From contig CP084167.1 of NCBI GenBank assembly GCA_021513715.1, positions 2,560,001 to 2,624,000 on the forward strand: a stretch of DNA of 64,000 nucleotides. The letters run 5' to 3'. Each line of letters begins with the position of its first letter. Positions within the stretch are counted from its first letter, which is position 1. The notes below the pieces were generated by a model. The model worked only from the letters and a program-made list of their open reading frames with translations. It did no database searches and was not told where the DNA came from. Of the stretch, positions 3,449 to 5,398 are shown one piece after another. The position numbers and the translations under genes are program-made. The stretch comes from Candidatus Heimdallarchaeum endolithica. Its GTDB lineage: Archaea > Asgardarchaeota > Heimdallarchaeia > Heimdallarchaeales > Heimdallarchaeaceae.

Positions 3449-3928
3449 CTATAAAATTAAACGATAAAGATAAGCATTTTCTCTATCTTCATAATATTTT
3501 CGAATAGTCCTGATTCGCTTAAAACCCATTTTTTCATATAGGTTAATAGCATAATTGTTAGTTACTCTTACTTCAAGTTTAATTGAATTAAATCCTAGTT
3601 CTTTTACTCTAGTTATGAAGTATCTAAGTATCATTTTTCCGTATCCTTTCTTCCTAAAATTTCTATGAATTGCTATAGAAAGTATATGTGCTTCAGACTT
3701 AAATGATGATCTTCCTCCAAGAATGAAACCTATTATCTTGCTATAAGAATTATTATTATTTGATAAATTAACATCAATTTCTAAAGCAAAGCATAGGTCA
3801 GGATTCTGAAAGAAAATTAAGGAAATATATAATTCAGGAAAAGGAAATGCAAATGTGATTCGCTCTAAATCATAAACATCAACAATATCTTCAGTTTGCA
3901 TTTCTCTTATCCGTATCATAAGTTTCAC
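3449..3928 (-). CDS. rimI: RimI/Ard1-like GNAT N-acetyltransferase
   Basis: HILSIAIH..FRKKGYG, LEVRVTN..AINLYEKMGF, KYYED.ENAY. The start may be a few codons downstream. Confidence 0.88.
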   Translation of the reverse strand: MKLMIRIREMQTEDIVDVYDLERITFAFPFPELYISLIFFQNPDLCFALEIDVNLSNNNNSYSKIIGFILGGRSSFKSEAHILSIAIHRNFRKKGYGKMILRYFITRVKELGFNSIKLEVRVTNNYAINLYEKMGFKRIRTIRKYYEDRENAYLYRLIL

Positions 3929-4000
3929 ATTTAGTAGTTATTGATTACAACCATAGTTTAACAGAAAAAAACTTTGTGTTCTGTTGAATAGTTTGAAATA

Positions 4001-4015
4001 GGGAAAGTTAAATAA
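4001..4015 (+). promoter_or_regulatory. BRE + TATA box for the structured RNA
   Basis: GGGAAAG followed by TTAAATAA (4008-4015), about 25 nt upstream of the first hairpin at 4036; archaeal promoter geometry. Confidence 0.6.
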
Positions 4016-4035
4016 GACTTTGAGTAGATTCTTAT

Positions 4036-4265
4036 GCCTTCTATCGAGGACTTGTTAGAGGTTGTTTATGACAAACGATGAAAGCAAGAGCAAAAAGAAG
4101 GCTACAGCCTATCATATACGGGCTCTTTACCAAGTTGAGTGTGACACTCAGAACAATGAGGTTGAGTCAACCCTGATAGGCTACATTGGGTTCTCCTGAG
4201 GAGCTCTGCTAGCAGATGTGGGATTGTCCCAAAGATGAAGCTTAGTGTTAGCCTTGGGGGAACCC
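4036..4265 (+). ncRNA. Multi-hairpin box H/ACA pseudouridylation guide RNA: two H/ACA units (4036-4106, 4107-4185) plus a third K-turn hairpin (4188-4265)
   Basis: Hp1: stem GCCTTCT(4036-42)/AGAAGGC(4096-4102), pocket, upper stem CTTGTT/AGCAAG, K-turn-like TAGA...ACGATGA, ACA at 4104-06. Hp2: GCCTATCA(4107-14)/TGATAGGC(4174-81), upper stem GGCTC/GAGTC, ACA at 4183-85, 14 nt from the upper stem. Hp3: 14 bp stem 4188-4201/4252-4265 with CAGA...AAGATGA and no ACA. Confidence 0.8.
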
Positions 4266-4328
4266 TTTAGTTATATTGAAACAGAAAAATTAAAAATAGG
4301 TTGAAATTAAGCAATTTAGAAGAAAATA

Positions 4329-4403
4329 GGGGTAGTGGTCTAGTGGTATGACAACGCCTTCACGCGGCGTAGGTCGCAGGTTCAATTCCTGCCTACCCCA
4401 CCA
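4329..4403 (+). tRNA. trnV: tRNA-Val(CAC), intronless, CCA encoded
   Basis: Acceptor stem GGGGTAG/CTACCCC, D arm GTC..GAC, anticodon arm ACGCC-TTCACGC-GGCGT, T arm GCAGG-TTCAATT-CCTGC, 3' ACCA. Confidence 0.97.
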
Positions 4404-4426
4404 CCAACAATTTGTTGAGAAATCAA

Positions 4427-5398
4427 ATGTCAGAATCAAATATTGATCACGGATTTATTGACCTTTTTTCTGGAGCTGGAGGTTTTAGTTCTGGGTTTAG
4501 ACTTGCTGGCTTTAAAGAATTACTAGTTATTGAAAGGAATCTCTCTGCCATAAAAACATACAACTTGAACCTGCCTGACGCAATTTGTATAAATGATGAT
4601 ATACGGAATATTCATTCTTTAGAAATAGAAAGAAAATGTTATCAAAAACCAACTGTCGTGTTAGCCTCTCCCCCTTGTGAACCGTTTACTTCTGCAAATA
4701 CCAAACGAAAACCAACAACATGGGAAAGATTTTTTGAAGATCCCCAAGGGGATTTGATTTTTCATGCAATAAGGATAATCAAAGATTTAAATCCTGAATT
4801 TTTTGTTATCGAGAATGTTGTACCTATTATTGATGGTGAAGGAAGAGAAATTATTCTTGAAGCTTTTGCTGACTCCAAATTCCCAACTATATATTTTAAT
4901 GTTATTCGTGCTGAAAAACATGGTTCTCCTTCTTCTAGAAAGCGTGTTTTTATTTCTAACATCAATCTTGATTTGGAGAAGAAAAAAATTGTTACTGTAG
5001 GTCAAGTTTTATCTGGTCTCCAAGATCCTTCCTATCCAAATGATCTTCCTAATCACTTTCTAACTCCTATTCCAGATAAAATCCAAAAGAGAATTCATCA
5101 AATCAAACCTGGAAACGCTGCTGTTTATTTTGAAGGTGCATCAAGTGAAAAATTAAATTGGATTAGGCTTGATAAAAACAAACTTTCTCCTACTGTGATG
5201 GGAAAATCTAGGTTTATTCATTTTGATCAAGATCGGGCTTTGACGATACGTGAGCATGGGCGATTAATGACTTTTCCAGATTATTATGAGTTTACTGGAA
5301 CCGTTGAAGAAATGTATAATCAAGTTGGAGAAGCAGTTCCCCCACTAATTTCCTATTTGATTGCAAAAAAAATTAAAGAAAAAATTTCTGAATCCTAA
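4427..5398 (+). CDS. Cytosine-C5 methyltransferase (orphan)
   Basis: Motif I DLFSGAGG, IV SPPCEPF, VI ENV, VIII R-x-R-VF, IX RLMTFPD, X QVGEAVPP. The ORF track starts at TTG 4412; ATG 4427 is preferred. Confidence 0.9.
   Translation: MSESNIDHGFIDLFSGAGGFSSGFRLAGFKELLVIERNLSAIKTYNLNLPDAICINDDIRNIHSLEIERKCYQKPTVVLASPPCEPFTSANTKRKPTTWERFFEDPQGDLIFHAIRIIKDLNPEFFVIENVVPIIDGEGREIILEAFADSKFPTIYFNVIRAEKHGSPSSRKRVFISNINLDLEKKKIVTVGQVLSGLQDPSYPNDLPNHFLTPIPDKIQKRIHQIKPGNAAVYFEGASSEKLNWIRLDKNKLSPTVMGKSRFIHFDQDRALTIREHGRLMTFPDYYEFTGTVEEMYNQVGEAVPPLISYLIAKKIKEKISES

Follow-up and report, generated by a model that had tools for sequence, protein, structure and literature searches.

A short non-coding gap in the genome of Candidatus Heimdallarchaeum endolithica raises two questions: does it encode a guide RNA that directs pseudouridylation of 23S rRNA next to the peptidyl transferase loop, and how is such a guide related to those known from other archaea and from eukaryotes? 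The genome is a single contig of 3,326,783 bases with 30.8% G+C, and the window, i.e. the whole stretch of 64,000 nucleotides that was analysed, contains this gap, which is bordered by a GNAT acetyltransferase gene (3449-3928, minus strand) on one side and on the other by tRNA-Val(CAC) (4329-4403, plus strand), a downstream neighbour situated outside the guide. The three-hairpin box H/ACA RNA itself spans 4036-4265 on the plus strand and has 46.5% G+C. Around 25 nt 5' of its first hairpin, at 4001-4015 on the same strand, a purine run followed by TTAAATAA constitutes a putative archaeal promoter of BRE/TATA-like appearance, and relatives possess a similar A-rich/AGTTCAA element at an equal distance from the hairpin. 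Transcription would start from the TATA-like element near 4008-4015; a scan for sigma-70 promoters and terminators is uninformative for archaeal DNA. Directly 3' of the tRNA-Val lies a C5 cytosine DNA methylase gene (4412-5398) in which the motif reads PCE and not the usual PCQ. The 23S target is about 430 kb away from the guide in this genome, where 16S and 23S are unlinked, while in some Asgard genomes (L114/G094, L069/G065, L109/G127) the guide is found 0.6-7 kb from the target site.

Three hairpins were predicted on folding 4036-4265 (z = -3.16). Hairpin 1, window positions 4036-4106, gave z = -3.14 by itself and none of 200 shuffled sequences was as stable. Its lower stem H1 has 7 bp, formed by GCCTTCT (4036-4042) and the strand at 4096-4102 in the MFE as well as in the centroid structure, and its upper helix H2 has 6 bp between 4051-4056 and 4083-4088, both strands being assigned by folding and covariation. 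Between the two helices there is a two-strand internal pocket, as in archaeal box H/ACA guides, composed of the 5' guide strand ATCGAGG (4043-4049) and the 3' guide strand GCAA (4090-4093), with A4089 and A4094-A4095 unpaired. Above H2 we recognized a K-turn with an apical stem-loop (4057-4082), which from its sequence is a predicted L7Ae site: G4058-A4059 faces G4080-A4081 next to a 3-nt bulge (4077-4079), as judged by eye, and the motif is capped by the stem-loop 4060-4076. Its distance from the pocket, the 6 bp of H2, is in accordance with the archaeal H/ACA rule of 5-6 bp. The hairpin terminates with an ACA box (4104-4106) that directly abuts the next stem and is separated from the position of the target U by 14 nt (4090-4103), the rule for archaeal ACA/ANA boxes being 14-15 nt. 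All these elements are on the plus strand. The original prediction had placed ATCGAGG at 4043-4049, GCAAA at 4090-4094 and the modified U 14 nt from the ACA, and the sequence agrees with it on these points.

The single 23S gene of this genome reads GGCTTGCTACCTCGATGTCGG at the target, and the region as a whole is GGCUUGC-UA-CCUCGAUGUCGG, i.e. it has CUUGC rather than UUUGC. The target had been expected to be 5'-UUUGC-[U N]-CCUCGAU-3'; the 7-bp 5' side of this pairing stands, while the 3' side has to be corrected to the CUUGC of the 23S rRNA and the GCAA of the guide, and the genome does not contain the test string TTTGCTACCTCGAT because the 23S sequence differs from it by one base. A4094 faces a C, and consequently the 3' duplex has 4 bp (GCAA:UUGC), all of them Watson-Crick, instead of 5. 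The guide strands thus pair with CCUCGAU (E. coli 2498-2504) and UUGC (E. coli 2492-2495), giving 7 + 4 bp around an unpaired UA, UUGC-[UA]-CCUCGAU. The target nucleotide (genome position C1:2131870, minus strand) is a U, as foreseen, and in a gap-free alignment it corresponds to C2496 of E. coli K-12, the equivalent position that had been proposed. According to the established structure of 23S rRNA, it faces A2455 and closes helix 89 at its base, next to the peptidyl transferase loop. When the rRNAs were dinucleotide-shuffled 3000 times, an exact match of this kind arose in two of the shuffles; with G-U pairs allowed an equal score was reached in none of 300 shuffled rRNAs.

The RNA is present in 29 of 30 genomes of the same family, as found by BLAST. 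In 20 such homologues, a set chosen without regard to the pocket, ATCGAGG is unchanged in every case; ATCGAGGA and GCAA are invariant in all 20 when aligned, whereas stems, loops and flanks change. The target UUGCUACCUCGAU is likewise identical in all 19 of the family 23S genes that were read. Among the 20 homologues listed, 19 have an ANA box at 14 nt and the remaining one has it at 15 nt. Beyond the family, a model of the hairpin gave matches in 49 of 151 sampled genomes of the phylum, at least one of these matches being weak and seemingly false, and in 46 of 83 genomes of the class. The weak match in G133 (L105) has no pocket geometry and was treated as false. Among these copies are those in 10 of 22 genomes of a family whose nearest neighbours in a comparison of a ribosomal protein are for the most part labelled Hodarchaeales (the labels are mixed). 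On sequence the pocket is conserved across Asgard lineages, Hodarchaeales apparently among them.

The alignment of 49 hairpins was fitted to its own model and the sequences are related, so that the following counts of conservation and covariation are overstated: CGAGG is kept in 48-49 of 49, the 3' guide has G in 49, C in 49, A in 44 and A in 48 with variable flanking positions, the GA on the 3' strand of the K-turn motif occurs in all 49, 90% of stem cells are paired, and two-sided changes affect 12 of 13 pairs (7/7 in the lower stem H1 and 5/6 in the upper helix H2). Most Asgard copies retain the downstream hairpins. In L088, L095, L097, L099 and L101, which represent families f3 and f4 of the same order, hairpin 1 apparently stands alone, not being followed directly by hairpins 2 and 3, and a clear ANA box is missing from some of these copies. 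Two genomes, G066 (L119) and G076 (L120), have G and not C at E. coli 2495 in their 23S, which breaks the pairing with GCAA; a model search of the sampled genomes of their families did not find hairpin 1, and searching by pattern for a CCAA guide that would compensate for the change gave background-like matches only.

At the normal threshold the Rfam scan gave no match at the guide locus. A permissive scan matched 3980-4269 to the HgcG/Pab40 family (RF00064) with 44.3 bits and an E-value of 5.5e-11, which is below the gathering threshold of 77 bits. This cut-off is reached by none of 151 Asgard genomes vs. 92 of 133 in the phylum that contains Thermococci, i.e. the Asgard copies escape RF00064. 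To compare the guide with the characterized RNA we used the P. abyssi genome (G439), which was reached via a match in Methanofastidiosia and from there the Thermococci-containing phylum; a pattern scan of all named genomes had missed Thermococcales and returned six chance-like bacterial matches in addition to that one Methanofastidiosia copy. The RF00064 match in P. abyssi is at 382332-382604, the published coordinates of Pab40. Only one register of the P. abyssi 23S gives U at all eight published domain V pseudouridine positions, and in this register P. abyssi 2549, 2588 and 2603 correspond to E. coli 2457, 2496 and 2511. P. abyssi U2588 is consequently the same nucleotide as the Heimdallarchaeum target U, the alignment of the two 23S sequences being gap-free there.

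In Pab40 motif 1 the pocket consists of AAGCGAGG / GCGA and the ACA is 14 nt away; of all sites in the P. abyssi 23S, U2588 fits it best. It shares with hairpin 1 the GCC start, the pocket CGAGG / GCRA, the 6-bp H2, a K-turn-type motif, the ACA at 14 nt and the GCC of motif 2 right after it. The two differ in that Heimdallarchaeum has stems richer in A+T and a full K-turn with an apical stem-loop, while Pab40 has a short K-loop; the 3' duplex contains A-U in Heimdallarchaeum and G-U in Pab40. They also form a compensatory pair: GCGAGG of Pab40 pairs with CCUCGC and UCGAGG of Heimdallarchaeum with CCUCGA, the E. coli 2503 equivalent being C in P. abyssi (guide G) and A in Heimdallarchaeum (guide U). 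Model R1, built only from Asgard hairpins, matches Pab40 motif 1 with 29.2 bits (E 1e-5) as well as three further copies from the Thermococci group. As in Pab40/Pf7/Pho40/Tko1/Afu4, which are HgcG (PMC2377435), there are three motifs in the same order with the same target U; they are ordered 2496, (2586), 1915 and their pockets match those of Pab40, the box of motif 3 being degenerate in this genome. Judged by its anatomy and target, the guide RNA is an orthologue of RF00064 without formal Rfam membership. On the same evidence hairpin 1 corresponds to motif 1 of an archaeal H/ACA RNA with three motifs, the Asgard orthologue of Pab40/HgcG/Pf7/Afu4, and holds its putative pseudouridylation pocket. 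The original prediction had missed this orthology. The guide is of a kind already known from archaea, and this Asgard copy of it is unannotated.

The activity of the orthologous guide is well described. Pab40 motif 1 directs formation of Psi2588 in the P. abyssi 23S, a position that is CMCT-positive in vivo and rated +++ on reconstitution in vitro (Muller et al. 2008, PMC2377435), and the equivalent Psi2592 of T. kodakarensis is gone in cbf5, nop10 and gar1 deletion strains (PMC6138745). The 23S of S. islandicus contains three pseudouridines only and none at the 2496 equivalent (PMC11077068), so the modification is patchy among archaea. In Heimdallarchaeum the family models of Cbf5, Nop10, Gar1 and L7Ae all score above their cut-offs, and the catalytic HSGTLD motif of Cbf5 is intact. 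We consider it very probable, given this gene content and the conserved pairing, that hairpin 1 guides pseudouridylation of the 23S U at E. coli 2496 in Heimdallarchaeum. By analogy with archaeal H/ACA particles, L7Ae would bind the K-turn while Cbf5 with Nop10 and Gar1 would bind the lower stem and the ACA; in the pre-23S rRNA the pocket would pair with UUGC and CCUCGAU, the two segments that flank the unpaired UA, and Cbf5 would then convert the U to pseudouridine. Because of its location in helix 89, the U is probably reached by the guide while the subunit is being assembled, and the pseudouridine would stiffen the end of the helix. No new mechanism is revealed. The Pyrococcus guide and its site were proven in 2008, and that archaea and eukaryotes share the site was published in the same year. 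The present data extend this proven guide-target pair to Asgard archaea, suggest that a guide directed the pseudouridine at E. coli 2496 in those archaea which are most closely related to eukaryotes, and predict a precise, testable rRNA modification. A literature search, of incomplete coverage, found no description of Asgard H/ACA guides.

The hairpin could also bind the rRNA segment and modify it poorly or not at all, either acting as a chaperone of helix 89 assembly or being kept for the sake of the other hairpins. This is improbable. Its 3' duplex has only 4 bp, the 3' duplex being the more critical one, and in P. abyssi some well-formed predicted pairings are inactive, with 6 of 21 predicted sites disproved (PMC2377435). 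However, the active Pab40 motif 1 also has a 4-bp 3' duplex, with one G-U pair, and the Heimdallarchaeum duplex is no weaker. Active guides most often have an H2 of 6 bp (PMC2377435), and hairpin 1 agrees with both of Muller's geometric rules, 6 bp in H2 and 14 nt to the ACA. The 14-nt spacing and ANA box are moreover kept across homologues, the orthologous pairing is active in Pyrococcus, and the apparent occurrence of hairpin 1 alone in some Heimdall lineages speaks against its being kept for other hairpins.

Less probable still than this is a main target other than the U at E. coli 2496, be it in a tRNA, in an mRNA, or the U at E. coli 2493, which is the orphan Psi2585 of P. abyssi. Some archaeal motifs do guide two to three sites (PMC2377435), but in a scan of 16S and 23S no site besides the 7 + 4 bp one had 3 bp or more on both sides, and guide registers which take in A4050 or A4089 lose the match, having no good counterpart in the rRNAs; homologues differ freely at A4089. 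The genome has three copies of the sequence TTGC-NN-CCTCGAT, and in the two outside the 23S the target position is not a U. Psi2585 is made by none of the P. abyssi guides (PMC6138745). That the match arose by chance or that the hairpin is a decayed remnant is hardly credible: the Rfam score is below threshold and hairpin 3 has no clear ANA box here, but the comparative data (29/30 family genomes, an invariant pocket, covarying stems and phylum-wide homologues) already refute it.

With guided modification of the U at E. coli 2496 as the preferred reading, the relation to eukaryotic guides can be considered. Eukaryotic H/ACA snoRNAs such as snR46 have two hairpins, an H box and Nhp2, and no K-turn. 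The Heimdallarchaeum RNA differs from this snR46/SNORA16 type, with its H box ANANNA in the hinge, in having three hairpins and a K-turn motif in each. For the equivalent human site we take the guide to be SNORA16 (RF00190). With E-values up to 10 allowed, the Rfam models of snR46 and SNORA16 recognized neither hairpin 1 nor its counterparts in four further genomes, so that homology to either snoRNA finds no support in the models.

Yeast 25S Psi2865 is guided by snR46 and is common to human (PMC8307265). Yeast 2826 is equivalent to E. coli 2457 (PMC11077068), from which the offset between the two numberings is 369, and yeast 2826/2865/2880 (PMC8307265) have the same spacing of 39 + 15 nt as P. 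abyssi 2549/2588/2603 and E. coli 2457/2496/2511; the three P. abyssi positions are listed as conserved in eukaryotes including yeast (PMC2377435). The proposed equivalence to Psi2865 with the offset of 369 therefore holds by published numbering and spacing. What snR46 (RF01253) has in common with hairpin 1 is this homologous uridine, identified in the same way, and the same enzyme family. The suggestion that the unit is a functional counterpart of snR46 is well supported, while the suggestion of an ancestor found no backing in the covariance models or in the archaeal architecture of the RNA. Likeness of the pockets cannot show descent because any guide for this U needs nearly the same pocket, and since guide backbones diverge fast and pockets converge on the target, descent into eukaryotes is neither supported nor excluded. 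A continuous vertical inheritance from the ancestor of Thermococci, Archaeoglobi and Asgard archaea through Hodarchaeales to the Psi2865 hairpin of snR46/SNORA16 in the first eukaryotes appears doubtful to us, although its archaeal half is supported by the sequence comparisons. If true, it would make a single guide-target pair traceable across the boundary between archaea and eukaryotes. Loss of snR46 results in sparsomycin hypersensitivity, tighter binding of A-site tRNA and more read-through of stop codons (PMC1766470), a phenotype which suggests that the Psi2865 site may have a fine-tuning role.

The other two hairpins have predicted targets of their own. Hairpin 2 (4107-4185, plus strand), with the 3' guide AACCC at 4169-4173 and an ACA at 4183-4185, has as its predicted target the U at E. 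coli 2586. The equivalent position, P. abyssi 2678, has been proposed as the target of motif 2 of Afu4/Pf7, and the site is modified in haloarchaea, fly and mouse (PMC2377435). Hairpin 3 (4188-4265, plus strand) has the guides AGCTC (4202-4206) and GTTAG (4247-4251), which fit helix 69 with the U at E. coli 1915. Motif 3 of Pab40 targets P. abyssi 2016 (PMC2377435), and our 23S alignment places this position at the U that corresponds to E. coli 1915. The Heimdallarchaeum hairpin 3 has an over-long lower stem and lacks an ANA box at a distance of 14-15 nt, so it may be inactive in this genome. Helix 69 of the family has the sequence GGAGCU-AACUAUG-AGCUUC, in which the G at 1918 is eukaryote-like. 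Hairpin 3 matches this lineage-specific stem with its guide AGCUC, while Pab40 has GGUUA.

Inserted sequences were detected both in the gene of the modifying enzyme and in the target gene. The cbf5 gene (G000:C1:1889049-1891559, plus strand, L023) contains, just after the GTYVRKL motif, an intein of roughly 500 residues that includes a LAGLIDADG domain, ends with SSN before a Cys, and must splice out. In the 23S gene an insertion of about 423 nt (L001:1987-2410, minus strand) separates the equivalents of E. coli 2449 and 2450; the target U follows 47 nt downstream of it. Its ends, CTACAC and GTGTAG, are complementary, its 3' junction is also present in relatives from the family, and it has no match in Rfam; by its sequence it resembles the introns of archaeal rRNA genes. 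A second insertion, about 678 nt long (L001:3056-3734, minus strand), contains an ORF of 186 amino acids with two LAGLIDADG-like motifs recognized by eye, and is probably a homing-endonuclease intron. It is because of these two insertions that the 23S gene is 4136 nt long.
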